A stretch of DNA of 64,000 nucleotides, taken from the NCBI GenBank assembly GCA_963668695.2, contig CAXXLQ010000004.1:1280001-1344000 (forward strand), given 5' to 3'. Under the pieces are notes generated by a model, which was given only the letters and a program-made list of their open reading frames with translations, had not been told where the DNA came from and searched no databases. The stretch is from Vicinamibacteria bacterium (lineage in GTDB: Bacteria; Acidobacteriota; Vicinamibacteria; Marinacidobacterales; Marinacidobacteraceae). Within the stretch, counting starts at the first letter, position 1. Each line of letters opens with the position of its first letter. Of this stretch, positions 18,812 through 58,005 are shown in pieces. The translations under genes and the position numbers were made by a program.

Positions 18812-18899
18812 CGGGCGACTCTTTCTCCGTAGGCGCGACGCCCGCCTCCGCGGTGCTGTCGAGGAGACCCTTGCGCTCCGGGACCAGCGGTCCGGATTA

Positions 18900-19319
18900 A
18901 CAGCCGGTGGTGGAACCCACGCGGCGTTCGGCCGGCGATCCATCCCGGCCAAACAGCCGGTGGTGGAACCCGCGCGGCGTTCGGCCAGCGATCCATCCCG
19001 GCTGAACCGCGTCGCTGCGCGCCGCTCATCGTTGCGTTTCGGTCGAAATACACTCGGTATTCCTCCCTCACGCGCCTTGTCAGCCGGACCCCCACCGGGA
19101 GAACTGGGCCTCGCCGGCCTCGGCGCTCACTCGGATTCCACCACCGGCTATTTCACCGCGTCGCTGCGCGCCGCTCATCGTTGCGTTTCGGTCGAAATAC
19201 ACCCGGGCCAGTTCTCCCGGTGGGGGCTCCTCCCTCACGCGCCTTGTCAGCCGGGCGCCTCGCCCCCACCGGGAGAACTGGCCAGCCTCGGCGCTCACCC
19301 GGGTTCCACCACAGGCTGT
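18900..19319. mobile_element. Composite MITE (2 left + 2 right half-modules)
   Basis: acagccggtggtggaacc twice (18900, about 18953), then two right halves ending ccaccggct / ccacaggctgt. Confidence 0.85.
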
Positions 19320-40337: not shown

Positions 40338-41530
40338 AACGCGGACTTCGGCCCCGGCAGGGAGCGTTCGGTTCCTTCGGGGGACGGTTTGTTCCGGAAC
40401 TCCTCACGCCCGCGCTCGAGGAGCTGGAAACCGCCCGCAAGGAGATCGTGCCTACGGCGGCGTTCCGCAGCGAACTGGACCGGGAGGCGCGGGACTGGGT
40501 GGGGCGGCCGACTCCCCTTACCAGGGTCCCGCGGTTCTCGGAACGGGCCGGATTCGAAACGGTATTCAAGCGCGAGGACCTGCTCCATGGAGGGGCGCAC
40601 AAGGCGAACAACGTGCTCGGGCAGGCCCTCCTGGCCCGGCACATGGGCAAGACCCGGCTAATCGCCGAGACCGGCGCCGGTCAGCATGGGACTGCGACGG
40701 CGATGATCGCGGCGCGGTTCGGTATGCGGGCGGTGATCTACATGGGAGCAAAGGACATGGCGCGCCAGGCCCCCAATGTGAAGCGAATGGAACTGTGCGG
40801 CGCCGAAGTGGTTCCCGTCACGGCGGGGGCCCGCACTCTGAAGGACGCGATCAACGAAGCGCTGCGCGATTGGACCGGGAGCCTCGCCGATACGCACTAC
40901 CTGCTCGGGACGGCCGCGGGACCGCATCCCTTTCCACGCCTGGTCCGGGATTTCCAAGCAGTCATCGGGCGCGAGGCCAAACGGCAGTGGCGGCGTGAAC
41001 TCGGCGGGCTCCCCGATGTGGTCGTGGCGTGCGTGGGGGGCGGAAGCAACGCGATCGGGATCTTCCACGCCTTCGTGCCCGAAAAATCGGTTCGGCTTGT
41101 CGGCGTAGAGCCCGGAGGAGCGGGACTGGAAAGCGGCCGGCACGGCGCGACCCTCGTGCGCGGCACTCCGGGCCTGCTCCACGGCGCCCGCACCATGGTC
41201 CTCCAGGACGACGAAGGCCAGATCCGCGAACCCCACAGCATTTCGGCGGGGCTCGACTATCCCGGGGTGGGCCCGGAGCACGCGCACCTTCAGGAGATCG
41301 GTCGAGCCACCTACGTCGCCGCCACCGATGAAGAGGCGCTGGATGCCTTCGAGGTGCTGTCGGCCACCGAAGGGATCGTTCCCGCCTTCGAACCTTCCCA
41401 CGCGCTCGCTTTCGTCCTCCGCGCCAGGCAATCGCGGGAGATTGCCGCCGGGGCGCGGGTACTCGTGAACCTTTGCGGCCGCGGCGACAAGGATCTTGAG
41501 ACGTATTTCGCGCTCGGTCGATCGTCATGA
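40334..41530 (+). CDS. trpB: Tryptophan synthase beta chain
   Basis: [48 protein letters not shown]. Confidence 0.97.
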
Positions 41531-42324
41531 GCCTCGCCGCGCTCCGTACTACGCTGGGGGAGGGGCCGGCGGTTTCTCCGTTTCTGGTGCTCGGAGATCC
41601 GACTCCTGACCTTTGTGTGGAGTTGGCGCGGACGGCGGTCTCGGCGGGCGCCCGGATGCTTGAGATCGGATTCCCCTATAGCGATCCGGTCGCCGATGGT
41701 CCGGCGATCCAGGCGGCGGCGAGCCGCGCGCTTGCGGGAGGCACCTCAACGTTCCGCGGGTTCGAACTTCTGGGGCGGATCGCAAAGACCTGTCCGGGAG
41801 TCCCGCTCAACCTGCTGGTGTACGGGAATCTGGTGCATCGGATCGGATACGAACGGTTCACCGACACCGTGCGCGATGCCGGCGCCTCCTCGCTGCTCGT
41901 TCCGGATATACCGCTGGAGGAGGCCGCTCCGCTCCGCCGGGCGTGCCGGCGCGCCGGGCTCGGGCACGTTGAACTGGCGGGGCCCCTCACCCCGGCGCCG
42001 CGTCTCAAGCGCCTCGCCGGCGCCTCCTGTTTCGTTTACCTCGCGGGCTTCCAGGGCGTCACCGGCGTTCGTCGCGGCGGGTTCTCCGGGGTCCTTCGCC
42101 GGGTCGCCGAAGTCGCCGGAGTTGTGCAGGTTCCCTTGTGTCTCGGTTTCGGGCTGTCGGACCGCGCTCAGATCGTTCGCGGCTTCGAAGCCGGCGCGCG
42201 GATCGCGGTCGTCGGGAGCCACCTCGCGCGGGCAGTCGAACGCCTTTACCGAAGGGCGGGGGACGCGGATGACCTGATCGCCGGTTACCGTTCCGCGGTG
42301 CTTCAGCTCACCGCAAGCGGTTAA
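41527..42324 (+). CDS. trpA: Tryptophan synthase alpha chain
   Basis: [33 protein letters not shown]. Confidence 0.95.
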
Positions 42325-43015
42325 CAGCCTGTGGCAAAACCCACACGGCGTTCGACCGGCGATCCATCCCGGCCAAACAGCCTGTGATGAAACCCGCGCG
42401 GCCCAGTTCTCCCGGTGGGGGCTCGGCCGGCGATCCATCCCGGCCAAACAACCGGTGATGAAACCCACGCGGCCCAGTTCTCCCGGTGGGGGCTCGGCCG
42501 GCGATCCATCCCGGCTGAACCGCGTCGCTTTCGCGCCGCTCATCGTTGCGCTTCGGTCGGAATACACTCGGTATTCTTCCCTCACGCGCCTTGTCAGCCG
42601 GGCCCCCACCGGGAGGACTGGCCCCACCGGGAGAACTGGGCCTCACCGGCCTCGGCGCTCACATGGGTTCCACCACCGGCTGTTCACCGCGTCGCTGCGC
42701 GCCGCTCATCGTTGCGTTTCGGTCGAAATACACCCGGGCCAGTTCTCCCGGTGGGGGCTCCTCCCTCACGCGCCTTGTCAGCCGGGCCCCCACCGGGAGG
42801 ACTGGCCCCACCGGGAGAACTGGGCCTCGCCGGCCTCGGCGCTCACGCGGGTTCCACCACCGGCTGTTCACCGCGTCGCTGCGCGCCGCTCATCGTTGCG
42901 TTTCGGTCGAAATACACCCGGGCCAGTTCTCCCGGTGGGGGCTCCTCCCTCACGCGCCTTGTCAGCCGCGCGCCTCGCCGGTCTCGGCGCTCACGTGGGT
43001 TTCACCACAGGCTGT
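42324..43015. mobile_element. Composite MITE (3 left + 3 right half-modules) in the trpA stop codon
   Basis: tTA|acagcc...ggctgt|TAa; left modules at about 42324, 42377, 42448; right modules end at about 42683, 42868, 43015. Confidence 0.88.
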
Positions 43016-43036
43016 TAACGGCGAAAGGAAAGAACC

Positions 43037-44041
43037 ATGCTGGTCATCATGGGGGCGGCGCCCACCGAAGAGCAATGCCGGCGCGTGGAAACCGCGATCC
43101 GCGACATGGGATTCGCGCCGCTCCGGGTTCCGGGTGCCGACCGGACCGCCATCTGCGTCACCGGGAATCGTGGGCCCGTGGACCCATCGTTCCTGGTCCG
43201 GCTCCCGGGCGTTGCGCGCTGTATTCCGGTCACCAAGCCCTTCAAGCTGGTCAGCCGCGAAGTGCATCCGGCGGACAGCGTCGTGGAGGTTGCCGGCGTG
43301 ATGGTGGGCGGCCCCGACGCGGTGGTGATTGCGGGACCCTGCAGCGTCGAAACCGAGGCCCGCACCGTGGGGATCGCCCGCGCGGTCCGAGCGGCGGGAG
43401 CCGACCTGTTCCGCGCTCGCTTGTGGTCGGAACGGGTCGGCCCCTACCACTTCGGCGGTGTGGGCGACGAGGGCCTGCACACTCTCGATCGGGTCCGGGA
43501 AGAGACGGGACTTCCGGTCGTTTCGGAAATCGTGGATCCGCGTTCCGCGGAGCGGGTCGCCGAACATGTAGATCTGGTCCAGATCGCCGGCCGGCATATG
43601 GAGAACGAAGCCCTGTTGGAGATCGCCGCCAGCCTCCCGAAGCCGGTCATTTTGGAACGTGGTCCGTCGGCAACGGTCGAAGAGTGGCTGATGGCCGCGG
43701 AATCCCTCTTGGCCCGACAGAAGCGGGACGTGATCCTGTGCGAACGGGGAATCCGGACTGGGGGCCAGCGGCGCACGCTCCTCGACCTCCACGCGGTGCC
43801 GGTGGTGCGGCGCACTTCGCATCTGCCGGTTTTGGTGGACCCCTCGCATGCAGTCGCCGAGCGGGACCGGGTTCGACCGCTGGCCCGCGCTGCTCTCGCG
43901 GCCGGCGCATCCGGACTTGCGATCGCCGTGCATACGCATCCCGATACGGCCTATACCGATCCGCGCCAGACTGTGGACATTCCGACCTTGGAAGGGATCT
44001 TCCGGGATCTCCGTACGATTCGGGATCTCGAGCGCCTTTGA
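43037..44041 (+). CDS. DAHP synthase type I-beta homologue with N-terminal ACT/ferredoxin-like domain; catalytic motifs degenerate
   Basis: KPFKLVSRE, IAGPCSVE, ILCERGIRT, SHLPVLVDPSHA; KPRT replaced by SERV. Confidence 0.85.
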   Translation: MLVIMGAAPTEEQCRRVETAIRDMGFAPLRVPGADRTAICVTGNRGPVDPSFLVRLPGVARCIPVTKPFKLVSREVHPADSVVEVAGVMVGGPDAVVIAGPCSVETEARTVGIARAVRAAGADLFRARLWSERVGPYHFGGVGDEGLHTLDRVREETGLPVVSEIVDPRSAERVAEHVDLVQIAGRHMENEALLEIAASLPKPVILERGPSATVEEWLMAAESLLARQKRDVILCERGIRTGGQRRTLLDLHAVPVVRRTSHLPVLVDPSHAVAERDRVRPLARAALAAGASGLAIAVHTHPDTAYTDPRQTVDIPTLEGIFRDLRTIRDLERL

Positions 44042-44069
44042 AGCACTTCCACTTTCGACCTCCCGGCTG

Positions 44070-44468
44070 GCAGCCGGTGGTGAAATCCACGCGGCCCAGT
44101 TCTCCCGGTGGGGGCTCGGCCGGCGATCCATCCCGGCCAAACAGCCTGTGATGAAACCCGCGCGGCGTTCGGCCGGCGATCCATCCCGGCTGACCGCGTC
44201 GCTGCGCGCCGCTCATCGTTGCGTTTCGGTCGGAATACACCCGGTATTCCTCCCTCACGCGCCTTGTCAGCCAAGCGCCTCACCGGCCTCGGCGCTCACG
44301 CGGGTTCCACCACAGGCTGTTCACCACTCCGCTTCGCTCCGTTCTGCGTTGCGTTTCGGTCGCAATACACTCGGGCCAGTTCTCCCGGTGGGGGCTCCTC
44401 CCTCACGCACCTTGTCAGCCGGGCGCCTCACCGGCCTCGGCGCTCACGCGGGTTCCACTACAGGCTGC
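44070..44468. mobile_element. Composite MITE (2 left + 2 right half-modules)
   Basis: gcagccggtgg...ctacaggctgc|TAa; ends just before the next ATG (44474). Confidence 0.85.
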
Positions 44469-44473
44469 TAACG

Positions 44474-45361
44474 ATGACCGAAAACTCCTCCCCCGCTCCG
44501 GACCCCGGCGAAGTCTCTTTCGGCCGGACCCTGCTGCAGTTCTTCGTGATCCCCATGCTGGTCGTGGTACTCGGCGTCGGGATCTTCCTCGGGTTCGCGT
44601 GGCTGGTTTCCGACGACACGACCGCCCAGGAACACCTCCAGCGAATCCGTTCCGGGGGACACCGGGAGAGGAGGCAGGCGGCGTTCGAGCTCGCAAACCG
44701 GATTCAGCGTGGCGAGCCCGGGGAATTCGGCGCGCTCGGCCCCGACCTGGTGCGAGCTTTCGGAGAGGCGCAGGCACCGGCGGATCCCTGGGTGCGCCAA
44801 TACCTCGCGCTGGCGCTTGGAACGCTCTCGGAGCCCACCGCCGTTCCCGTCTTGACGGAGGCGCTTGCCGATCCGGATGAAACCGTGCGGGTCTATGCCG
44901 CCTGGGCGCTCGGTTCCATCGGTGGGGGAGCCGCGGTTTCGGCGCTTGGCGAGGCCAGCCGGGCCGACGATGCGGGGCTGCGGACCATGGCGGTCTATGG
45001 GCTCGGCGCGATCGGCGATCCGGCGGCCGCCGCCACTTTGAGTCGAGCCGTCCAGGATCCGGTCCTCGATGTCTCCGTGAACGCCGTCGTGGCGCTTGCC
45101 CGAATCGGAGACGAGGCGGCGGCGGAGCGGCTCCTGGGGATGATGGAACCGGAATACTGGGTGGGCGTCCCGGGAATGCTGGAAGGCGAAAGGATCCTGG
45201 CGCGGCTGAGTGCGGTTCAGGCGGCGGGCGTCCTCGAAACCCCGGTCGTCCGGGCGCGGCTCGAGGAGGTGGCGGCGGGCGATCCCGACCTGCGAGTCCG
45301 GGCGGCCGCGCTCTCGGCTCTCGCTGCCGAAGGTCGGCGACCCGGTGGGCCGCGTCCGTGA
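44474..45361 (+). CDS. Membrane-anchored HEAT/PBS-lyase repeat protein
   Basis: N-terminal TM; repeats VRQYLALALG, VRVYAAWALG, LRTMAVYGLG, VRAAALSAL. Confidence 0.85.
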   Translation: MTENSSPAPDPGEVSFGRTLLQFFVIPMLVVVLGVGIFLGFAWLVSDDTTAQEHLQRIRSGGHRERRQAAFELANRIQRGEPGEFGALGPDLVRAFGEAQAPADPWVRQYLALALGTLSEPTAVPVLTEALADPDETVRVYAAWALGSIGGGAAVSALGEASRADDAGLRTMAVYGLGAIGDPAAAATLSRAVQDPVLDVSVNAVVALARIGDEAAAERLLGMMEPEYWVGVPGMLEGERILARLSAVQAAGVLETPVVRARLEEVAAGDPDLRVRAAALSALAAEGRRPGGPRP

Positions 45362-57225: not shown

Positions 57226-57460
57226 ACAGCCTGTGGTGAAACCCAAGCGGCGTTCGAGCGGCGATCCATCCCGTCTGAACCACGCCGCTTTGCGGCGCTC
57301 TGCGTTGCGTTTCGGTCGAAATACACCCGGGCCAGTTCTCCCGGTGGGGGCTCCTCCCTCACGCGCCTTGTCAGCCGGGCCCCCACCGGGAGGACTGGCC
57401 CCACCGGGAGAACTGGGCCTCGCCGCTCTCGGCGCTCACCCGGGTTCCACCACAGGCTGT
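57226..57460. mobile_element. MITE-like repeat copy
   Basis: tTA|acagcctgtgg...ccacaggctgt|TA; shares its TA with the next copy. Confidence 0.85.
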
Positions 57461-57462
57461 TA

Positions 57463-58005
57463 ACAGCCTGTGGCAAAACCCACGCGGCATTCCCGAGCCA
57501 GAAGGGATGGGGGCCGGGTAGCCCCGCCCCCCGTCCCTCCCGCTCCGGGGTCTCCGCGGTGCTCGCGCCCCGCTCCGGAAGCGACCGGCGATGCATCCCG
57601 GCCAAACAGCCTGTGATGAAACCCACGCGGCGTTCGGCCGGCGATCCATCCCGGCCAAACAGCCTGTGATGAAACCCACGCGGCGTTCGGCCGGCGATCC
57701 ATCCCGGCTGAACCGCGTCGCTGCGCGCCGCTCATCGTTGCGTTTCGGTGGGAATACACCCGGGCCAGTTCTCCCGGTGGGGGCTCCTCCCTCGCGCGCC
57801 TTGTCAGCCGGGCGCCTCGCCCGTCTCGGTGCTCACGTGGGTTCCACCACCGGCTGTTCACCGCCCCGCTTCGCGGTGCTCTGCGTTGCGCTTCGGTCGA
57901 AATACACCCGGGCCAGTTCTCCCGGTGGGGGCTCCTCCCTCGCGCGCCTTGTCAGCCGGGCGCCTCGCCCGTCTCGGTGCTCACGTGGGTTTCCCCGCAG
58001 GCTGT
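57463..58005. mobile_element. Composite MITE (3 left + 2 right half-modules) with about 90-bp cargo
   Basis: Left modules at about 57463, 57607, 57660 (the last two identical); right modules end at about 57858 and 58005; foreign insert about 57493-57582. Confidence 0.83.

Follow-up and report, generated by a model that had tools for sequence, protein, structure and literature searches.

RUP of Streptococcus pneumoniae and the Correia elements of Neisseria are bacterial miniature inverted-repeat transposable elements (MITEs) of the IS630/Tc1-mariner type, and the nesting of MITEs inside one another is textbook knowledge in plants. A review that summarises Jiang and Wessler (2001) puts multimers at more than 10% of 6,600 rice MITEs, with many self-insertions in some families, and attributes the nested multimers of rice and maize to independent insertion events (PMC5172404). 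In Porphyromonas gingivalis, the MITE BrickBuilt carries a variable number of tandem units between small inverted-repeat ends and is always intergenic (PMC4596501). Here we describe a MITE family of a Vicinamibacteria bacterium (Acidobacteriota, Marinacidobacteraceae; assembly GCA_963668695.2) in which left halves (L) of the element are followed by right halves (R) in nested arrays, starting from a stretch of 64,000 nucleotides of contig CAXXLQ010000004.1 (positions 1,280,001 to 1,344,000, forward strand; the window, position 1 being its first letter). We consider it moderately probable that these nests go back to one founder nesting with mutated TA duplications, which was spread by whole-array transposition and homology-directed copying and was reshaped by unequal recombination. 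In what follows, G000 is the genome of the window, G001 that of its sister species, and other G numbers denote the compared genomes of the family.

The initial annotation had described four composite copies in the window, and all of them are present at the positions it gave, each reading as m L units followed by n R units, written (m,n), and not head-to-tail. The break also falls at one internal point as it had claimed, the innermost L-R boundary being CCCGGC-TGA(A)-CCGCG in 4/4 window arrays, and the junctions match its description too (CCCGGCCAA followed by ACAGCC, and GGCTGT followed by TCACC). The arrays are composed as follows, beginning with the largest one (array 1, 42324-43015):

42322..42323, + strand: left TA of the array 1 target duplication, inside the TAA stop (42322-42324) of a trpA-like open reading frame (ORF)
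42324..42515, + strand: three L units of array 1 (repeat finders: 71-nt period, 95% matches)
42324-42373, + strand: L1, 50 nt, then CAA
42377-42444, + strand: L2, 68 nt, holding an 18-nt s module, then CAA
42448-42515, + strand: L3, 68 nt
42516..43015, + strand: three R units of array 1, each of apical domain, 3' arm and right terminal inverted repeat (TIR); 184-nt copies, 98%
42516-42683, + strand: R3, innermost, starting TGAA, then TCA
42687-42867, + strand: R2, then TCA
42871-43015, + strand: R1, the outermost R unit
43016..43017, + strand: right TA of the array 1 target duplication (projected flank overlap of -2 in G001)
18900..19319, + strand: (2,2) array, 53-nt period, 96%; as read from the sequence, L1 18900-18949, CAA, L2 18953-19002, TGAA, inner R to ~19151 and outer R to 19319
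44070..44468, + strand: (2,2) array; L1 44070-44137 (with s), CAA, L2 44141-44190, TGA, and, as read from the sequence, inner R to 44320, TCA, outer R 44324-44468
57463..58005, + strand: (3,2) array; L1 57463-57602 (with a ~90-nt inserted module), CAA, L2 57606-57655, CAA, L3 57659-57708, TGAA (L2 and L3 a 53-nt tandem, 98% matches), and, as read from the sequence, inner R to 57857, TCA, outer R 57861-58005

The outer arms of array 1 (28 nt) are 89% complementary according to a repeat finder, and the predicted single-stranded DNA fold of 42322-43017 consists of concentric stems with -218.8 kcal/mol, versus -152.9 +/- 6.5 in 20 shuffles (z -10). The array at 18900..19319 has TA at its left (18898-18899) and AA at its right, and the array at 57463..58005 stands head-to-tail with an upstream element ending at 57460, the TA at 57461-57462 being common to both. 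The Rfam gathering scan of the window gave 0 matches. A recurrent module of ~65-90 nt (containing GGGGTCTCCGCGGTGCT and CCGCTCCGGAAGCGA) interrupts the L arm at a point past the TIR and before the conserved L motif; it is seen at 57487-57585 of the window and at C4:52219, 59462, 66418 and 96096 of G000; in the context of this module, the L length among single elements is 115 nt in 16 and 140 nt in 10.

The repeated unit measures ~200-260 nt, and single elements span ~180-320 nt. It begins after a TA with a left TIR of ~26 nt ((A/G)CAGCC), followed by an L arm ending in GGCGAT(C/G)CATCCCGGC and by TGAA, and continues with a conserved apical domain (motifs TTGCGTTTCGGTCGAAATACAC and CTCCCTC(A/G)CGCGCCTTGTCAGCC), a 3' arm and a right TIR, GGCTG(T/C), next to a second TA. 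TA is present on both sides of 146/300 singles and 57/126 arrays, and the flanking 4-mers CTAG, TTAA, TTAG or CTAA show a YTAR preference. The first and last nucleotides of singles are complementary (G and C in 155, A and T in 98), and the TIRs of a single match their own partners at a mean of 18.5/24 positions, versus 15.7 for random partners. For orthologous sites we used 1.9 Mb of G001, with 108 sites paired with G000; where the sister species is empty, the G000 flanks overlap by exactly 2 nt at 19/49 singles and at 9/17 arrays. Array 1 itself is absent from G001, G004 and G008, and its empty site in G001 reads GCGGT-TA-ACAGCG. On these sequence features, the unit is a small, apparently non-coding, high-copy, TA-duplicating MITE of the IS630/Tc1-mariner kind.

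The family resembles RUP and Correia in its TA duplication, YTAR/CTAG-like target, TIRs and hairpin-forming non-coding body of ~200 nt, in its hundreds of intergenic copies and in the presence of head-to-tail pairs with one TA in common. Unlike them, one quarter to one third of its loci are nested or expanded arrays, its conservation is highest in internal motifs rather than in the TIRs, fixed slots may or may not hold an 18-nt module, and no matching transposase was found in the genome. Repetitive extragenic palindromes of the REP/BIME or REPIN type moved by a RAYT transposase were considered and rejected: G000 (91.7% complete) has no match to PF01797 (Y1, IS200-like), and TA duplication is seen at the MITE sites, as opposed to insertion without target duplication.

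A search within G000 found no cognate transposase with the same ends. An IS630-like gene bearing MITE ends would be bounded by ACAGCCTGTGG and CCACAGGCTGT, and the stretches of G000 between MITE-type ends 600-3500 nt apart contained only host genes (those of a radical SAM enzyme, an N-methylation-motif, pilin-type protein and a Trm112-like protein) and no autonomous element. The inverted repeats at the three DDE_3 loci of G000 differ from the MITE ends, and two of them begin TA-GTGT. At locus L028 (G000:C4:666796-668263), two MITE copies flank an IS630-like element (DDE_3, 79 bits), and both have a TA junction in common with it. The TIRs of this element start with TA-GTGTGGTGTCC, and its ends have only TGTGGTG in common with the MITE TIR; it is a candidate but unproven helper. 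Head-to-tail tandems of whole elements also occur: in G010, a member of the genus without nests, they have a 183-nt spacing (C1:1812981-1813365 and 1754527-1754728), and in G000 there are 11 loci of the order L-R-L-R. Such tandems fit repeated insertion into the regenerated flanking TA.

Units were counted across G000 by overlapped scanning with two anchors, an L motif (b, up to 1 mismatch) and an R motif (d, up to 3 mismatches), which gave 744 and 639 matches, respectively, and 0 in the reversed-genome control. The ~640-740 units occupy ~3% of the 4.1-Mb genome, with 128,350 nt in parsed blocks. They form 520 loci, of which 427 read as L units followed by R units, 59 contain only one of the two motifs, and 34 are concatenations (L-R-L-R, for instance) or of mixed strand. 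The 427 pure blocks comprise 301 singles, that is (1,1), and 126 arrays, whose commonest classes are (2,2) with 32, (2,1) with 25, (3,3) with 11, (1,2) with 9, and (3,1) and (3,2) with 8 each; (2,3), (4,1) and (4,2) count 5 each, and (8,1) and (4,4) are the extremes. The order of L before R proposed by the initial annotation holds, but its equal numbers of both are not universal, as m exceeds n in 63 arrays, is smaller in 18 and equals it (at 2 or more) in 45. The correlation of both counts was a check that it had named, and the two are associated. At least two R units are present in 13/314 blocks with one L and in 72/113 blocks with two or more, and the counts are associated among blocks with m and n of 2 or more (odds ratio 7.6, p=3.7e-4), whereas Spearman's rho over all 126 arrays is only 0.07 because of expansions restricted to L. 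As the loci are copies related to one another, with ~15 situated on contigs C1 and C3 (duplicates of parts of C4), these count tests overstate independence.

The junctions of the nests are stereotyped and are not TA. In at least 156 of the 230 L-L junctions, CCCGGC is followed by CAA and then by ACA(G/A)CC; other letters seen at this place are TGA (~16), CAG (14), GAA (12), CGA (4) and CTA (1). After GGCTGT, the R-R junction is TCA followed by CC in ~100 of the 127 located among 130 examined, with TAC in 10, TGA in 6 and TAA in 2. In contrast, the innermost junction between L and the apical domain is mostly TGAAC (TGAA in the large majority of 485). TA is kept at 1/230 L-L and ~12/127 R-R junctions, as against the TA/TA flanks of 146/300 singles, and this argues against the first of two origins suggested by the initial annotation, repeated insertion of the element into one fixed site in itself, in so far as a transposase would be responsible. 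The plant-type model of independent self-insertions was rejected as well: with few exceptions the inner copies have no target duplication of their own and, as described below, they are not drawn from the active pool.

A version of that idea in which a transposase or another enzyme keeps inserting family members into the L-apical point and non-TA integration itself creates CAA and TCA seems unlikely to us. The invariant site speaks for it, as do the precise boundaries of the inserted cassette, with outer markers intact at 6-9 nt, and the innermost L end, CCCGGCTG, which resembles the end of the right TIR and pairs with the L start, in a unit predicted to fold on itself (-15.5 kcal/mol, z -2.3). 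Nevertheless, integration duplicates or keeps target letters, and CAA and TCA cannot be derived from TGAA without recurring identical substitutions; as integration into TGAA could not give CAA plus TCA every time, the junction letters were therefore inherited. Moreover, the junctions that keep the host TGA at the left (~16/230) are in arrays with excess L and have no matching R junction. Most TGA, GAA and CAG variants in fact belong to L-excess arrays, and a given array tends to carry a single type, which is the signature of local tandem duplication of L. At one place in another genome (G008:C1:347273-347392), two L-L junctions read CCCGGCT-TA-GCAGCC, with TA kept, unlike the CAA found elsewhere; they may stem from a separate nesting or from one that has decayed less, or be L units behaving as mini-elements.

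The comparison of units points in the same direction as the inherited junctions. Concentric pairing of L and R TIRs beats the alternatives in 36/44 arrays with m=n, being worse in 4 and tied in 4. Genome-wide identity is 93.5% (L) and 94.0% (R) among inner units, 87.9% and 89.9% among outer units, and 84.9% and 87.3% among singles, so that the greater similarity of inner pairs, which the initial annotation had listed as a check, was indeed observed. In the 11 (3,3) arrays, levels 2 and 3 are alike at ~95% (L2-L3 95.2%), whereas level 1 is 87.7% (L) and 92.6% (R) identical to level 2. Between arrays, inner R units are 93.9% identical to each other, versus 91.4% between inner and outer R within an array. 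Furthermore, nearly all inner L units belong to a TIR subfamily that we call 'CCC' (186 in its three commonest variants), while the 'GTC' subfamily, with about one third of the singles, accounts for just 1 inner unit. The inner units are, judging from these comparisons, one homogeneous lineage inside more diverse outer units. Ongoing self-insertion would fit inner units that are younger and more uniform than the outer ones, but not their origin from one lineage when a third of the potentially mobile singles are of the other subfamily.

The nests are also restricted in their distribution. Every one of the 15 other genus members has the d motif (4-422 matches each; 628 in G000), as do 2/3 genomes sampled from other genera of the family, versus 0/12 genomes of two other families, and the un-nested TGAA junction is present in 17/28 genomes of the family, among them all 15 relatives within the genus. 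In contrast, only 5/28 have nest junctions and L-L tandems, with counts of 154/96/184 in G000, 29/25/29 in G001, 34/24/31 in G004, 26/24/25 in G008 and 2/2/4 in G002. Ten genus relatives carry the MITE family without nests, which is a further point against ongoing self-insertion, and the nest-free genomes with TGAA include nearly closed ones with 28-94 d-motif copies. As nests occur in 5/28 genomes and TGAA in every genus member, the nest is therefore a derived state of this sub-clade.

At the orthologous sites, 49 singles of G000 correspond to empty sites in G001, 18 to singles, 1 to a (2,1) array, 3 to (2,2) and 1 to (3,2), and 17 arrays correspond to sites with no element; the exact 2-nt overlap at 9 of these 17 is what whole-array transposition predicts. 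The most informative site is C4:1948434, where G000 and the more distant G004 have the same TGAA single and G008, G009 and G010 are empty. In G001, this single contains in addition an inner cassette with CAA and TCA junctions, and the outer markers are retained as close to the junction as 9 nt on its left and 6 nt on its right. By parsimony, G001 would have gained the cassette in place, stereotyped junctions included.

Arrays common to G000 and G001 have mostly changed their numbers of units. Only two are unchanged, both (2,2)/(2,2), and the others read (2,1)/(1,1) twice, (2,1)/(2,2), (2,2)/(1,2), (2,2)/(3,1), (2,3)/(1,2) and (4,3)/(1,2) in G000/G001. One of them is the window array at 44070-44468, which is (2,2) in G000 and (1,2) in G001, with one 53-nt L fewer, and in which four slots of the 18-nt s module differ as well. 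At C4:512580, G000 has a (1,1) element with chimeric L and R relative to the (2,2) of G001, the expected outcome of two unequal crossovers (G004 is (1,2) and G008 (1,1) at this site). A Fisher test on coupled L and R changes at orthologous sites was dropped as evidence of coupling because single-element sites cannot change by unequal recombination.

Changes are seen even within G000. Its contigs C1 (144 kb) and C3 (31 kb) are near-identical to C4:~300-420 kb and C4:~3.50-3.53 Mb. As probable strain variants or haplotigs of these parts of C4, they cause some loci to be counted twice and probably account for the 9.3% 'contamination' figure of G000. Between these copies the flanks are 97-100% identical (mostly 99.5-100%) and 8/9 singles are identical, but 5/6 arrays differ: the changes in unit number are all one-sided, (2,1)/(2,2), (3,3)/(1,3) and (5,2)/(3,2), and two arrays differ by 8 and 36 nt in length alone. 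As in a minisatellite or variable-number tandem repeat, close relatives have different numbers of units between unchanged flanks.

This behaviour could be taken to mean that there is no true nesting and that L and R have been multiplied separately by tandem duplication, as two adjacent minisatellites in one element. The mostly one-sided recent variants, the pure L expansions up to (8,1) with junction types uniform within an array, the low rho over 126 arrays and the orthologous arrays differing by a single L unit all agree with this explanation. It is nevertheless a quite improbable one in our opinion, since the outer and inner TIRs differ and pair concentrically, the inner lineage is common across arrays and does not copy the own outer unit, one orthologous site shows a whole inner element present or absent as a clean indel, and L and R counts are associated when both are 2 or more.

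That the arrays are mis-assembled repeats, which the initial annotation had foreseen as a possible refutation, is very hard to believe. Contigs of the Logan resource from runs of three studies enter array 1 at both outer ends (to 42345 and from 42991-43003) with 0-2 differences, and sponge metagenome runs contain this DNA stretch. Admittedly, no Logan contig of four runs spans array 1, and G000 contains the near-duplicate contigs mentioned above. Against this, the same architecture and junctions are found in four other assemblies, three of them of 1-20 contigs, the array at 44070-44468 has an orthologue in G001, and the order of L before R is strict at 427 loci.

Taken together, we favour the reading outlined at the beginning, which corresponds to the second origin suggested by the initial annotation, one ancestral nesting extended by recombination; it agrees with inherited non-TA junctions, the presence of nests in 5/28 genomes, one inner lineage and orthologues differing by whole units, while repeated self-insertion by a transposase is not supported. 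According to it, one copy would have inserted at the L-apical junction of another in the ancestor of the sub-clade formed by G000, G001, G004, G008 and G002, and its two flanking TA copies would have mutated to CAA and TCA, which would have locked the inner element in place. Three routes could then have generated the present arrays. First, the outer TIRs would have carried whole arrays to new TA sites; as no matching transposase was found, we infer this route from the sites flanked by TA at which the sister species has no element. Second, the inner cassette would have been copied, junction letters included, into resident singles by homology-directed repair or gene conversion, with homology in the L arm at the left and in the apical domain at the right, and a mis-registered copy would add a level, leading to (3,3) or (4,4). 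Third, unequal recombination or slippage between tandem L (53 or 71 nt) or tandem R (148-184 nt) would add or remove units one side at a time; we propose that the longer R units are lost more readily, so that L-rich arrays predominate.

Several observations weigh against this founder-nesting reading. We infer both the founder insertion and its mutated TA copies, and no extant single element has TA at the L-apical junction. The arrays of the genome are copies of one another, and counts such as 36/44 overstate independence. The polarity of the gain comes from one locus only (C4:1948434), by parsimony with three genomes, and C4:1463805 and C4:2003310 are without polarity because the outgroups are empty or have other insertions. 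The differences between C1/C3 and C4 could partly be noise of repeat assembly, and no transposase with matching ends was found in G000. Furthermore, the boundaries of the copied cassette are very tight, as the outer L keeps its own GATGC/GATCC variant at only 9 nt from the junction. Since flanking markers would often be co-converted in gene conversion, this requires the assumption of a precise break at the junction.

Such a break leads to a more speculative proposal. Group I introns and inteins are homing cassettes copied into a fixed, homologous empty site with their exact junctions carried along, and co-conversion of flanking markers is a hallmark of homing. As a tentative and rather doubtful possibility, the inner cassette of the arrays might be a second-order parasite, a MITE without TA flanks of its own that homes into the fixed L-apical site of its own family. 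A break at this site could come, for example, from the family's transposase cutting the right-end-like CCCGGCTG or from hairpin processing; it would be repaired from a nested donor, and each mis-registered repair would add a concentric level. The likeness concerns the mechanism and not membership, as the cassette is non-coding and the break putative, and, unlike in homing, no co-conversion of flanking markers is seen at the one polarised locus. If this were true, the arrays would form long hairpins that vary between strains and lie inside operons, for example between trpA and 3-deoxy-D-arabino-heptulosonate 7-phosphate (DAHP) synthase, and could serve as contingency switches for read-through.

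With respect to described systems, the family has in common with the multimers of rice and maize the high frequency of MITEs inside MITEs of the same family, and it differs from them (PMC5172404) in its bacterial host, its stereotyped junctions without TA duplication and its one inner lineage. These stereotyped non-TA junctions and the single inner lineage point to one event followed by copying. BrickBuilt consists of a single array with units of 23 nt (PMC4596501), whereas the present family has two arrays in mirror order, L and then R, derived from whole-element nesting. In full-text searches, which largely did not cover subscription journals, we found no description of symmetric MITE arrays of this kind in bacteria or of this Acidobacteria family.

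A second mobile feature is the 18-nt s module (CCCCACCGGGAGAACTGG and its complement), for which the L arm, the apical domain and the 3' arm each have fixed slots that are filled in free combination; in the window, the sites of the module include 42400-42420, 42604-42649 and 42736-42758. G000 has 1656 matches with up to 2 mismatches, versus 2 in the reversed control, and 242 of them are away from MITE loci. These modules probably account for the 36-nt length difference between the near-identical contigs. A compensatory gain of s on both arms was considered and discarded, as the association is weak (odds ratio ~2) and the slots combine freely. An exact 17-mer of the module is present in 22/28 family genomes, and G018 contains 226 s copies versus 27 MITE d motifs. 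In G018:C1, the s matches of ~0.67-2.33 Mb are all on the + strand among those listed and the earlier ones are mixed, which may be an orientation linked to the replichore; no strand skew of solo s motifs was seen in G000. Finally, three short elements (G000:C1:94441, C4:126875 and C4:593926) have the s of the L arm fused to the apical s, without the L motif or the initial half of the apical domain, which looks like a deletion between two direct 18-nt copies.

Array 1 and its neighbour are located between genes transcribed in the same direction:

41527..42324, + strand: tryptophan synthase alpha chain ORF (trpA-like; PF00290, E 4.9e-58), upstream of array 1
43037..44041, + strand: DAHP synthase ORF (PF00793, E 3.2e-56), between array 1 and the 44070-44468 array
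44474..45361, + strand: HEAT-repeat protein ORF (PF13646, E 6.7e-26), downstream of the 44070-44468 array

DAHP synthase starts ~20 nt past the trpA stop in G001, and ~710 nt past it in the window because of the 692-nt array. A scan of 42200-44600 detected 0 promoter-like sites and 3 terminator-like sites, versus 1.6 expected. Hairpin arrays of 0.4-0.8 kb between co-directional biosynthetic genes call for caution in assembly and annotation.

In conclusion, recombination between copies appears to shape the structure of this MITE family as much as transposition does, on the basis of an apparently locked-in inner copy propagated with its junctions, of unit numbers that change between near-identical genome copies, and of a family amounting to ~3% of the genome. 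For uncultured Acidobacteria, presumably marine or sponge-associated, the arrays provide a natural setting in which ectopic gene conversion and the instability of repeats can be measured.

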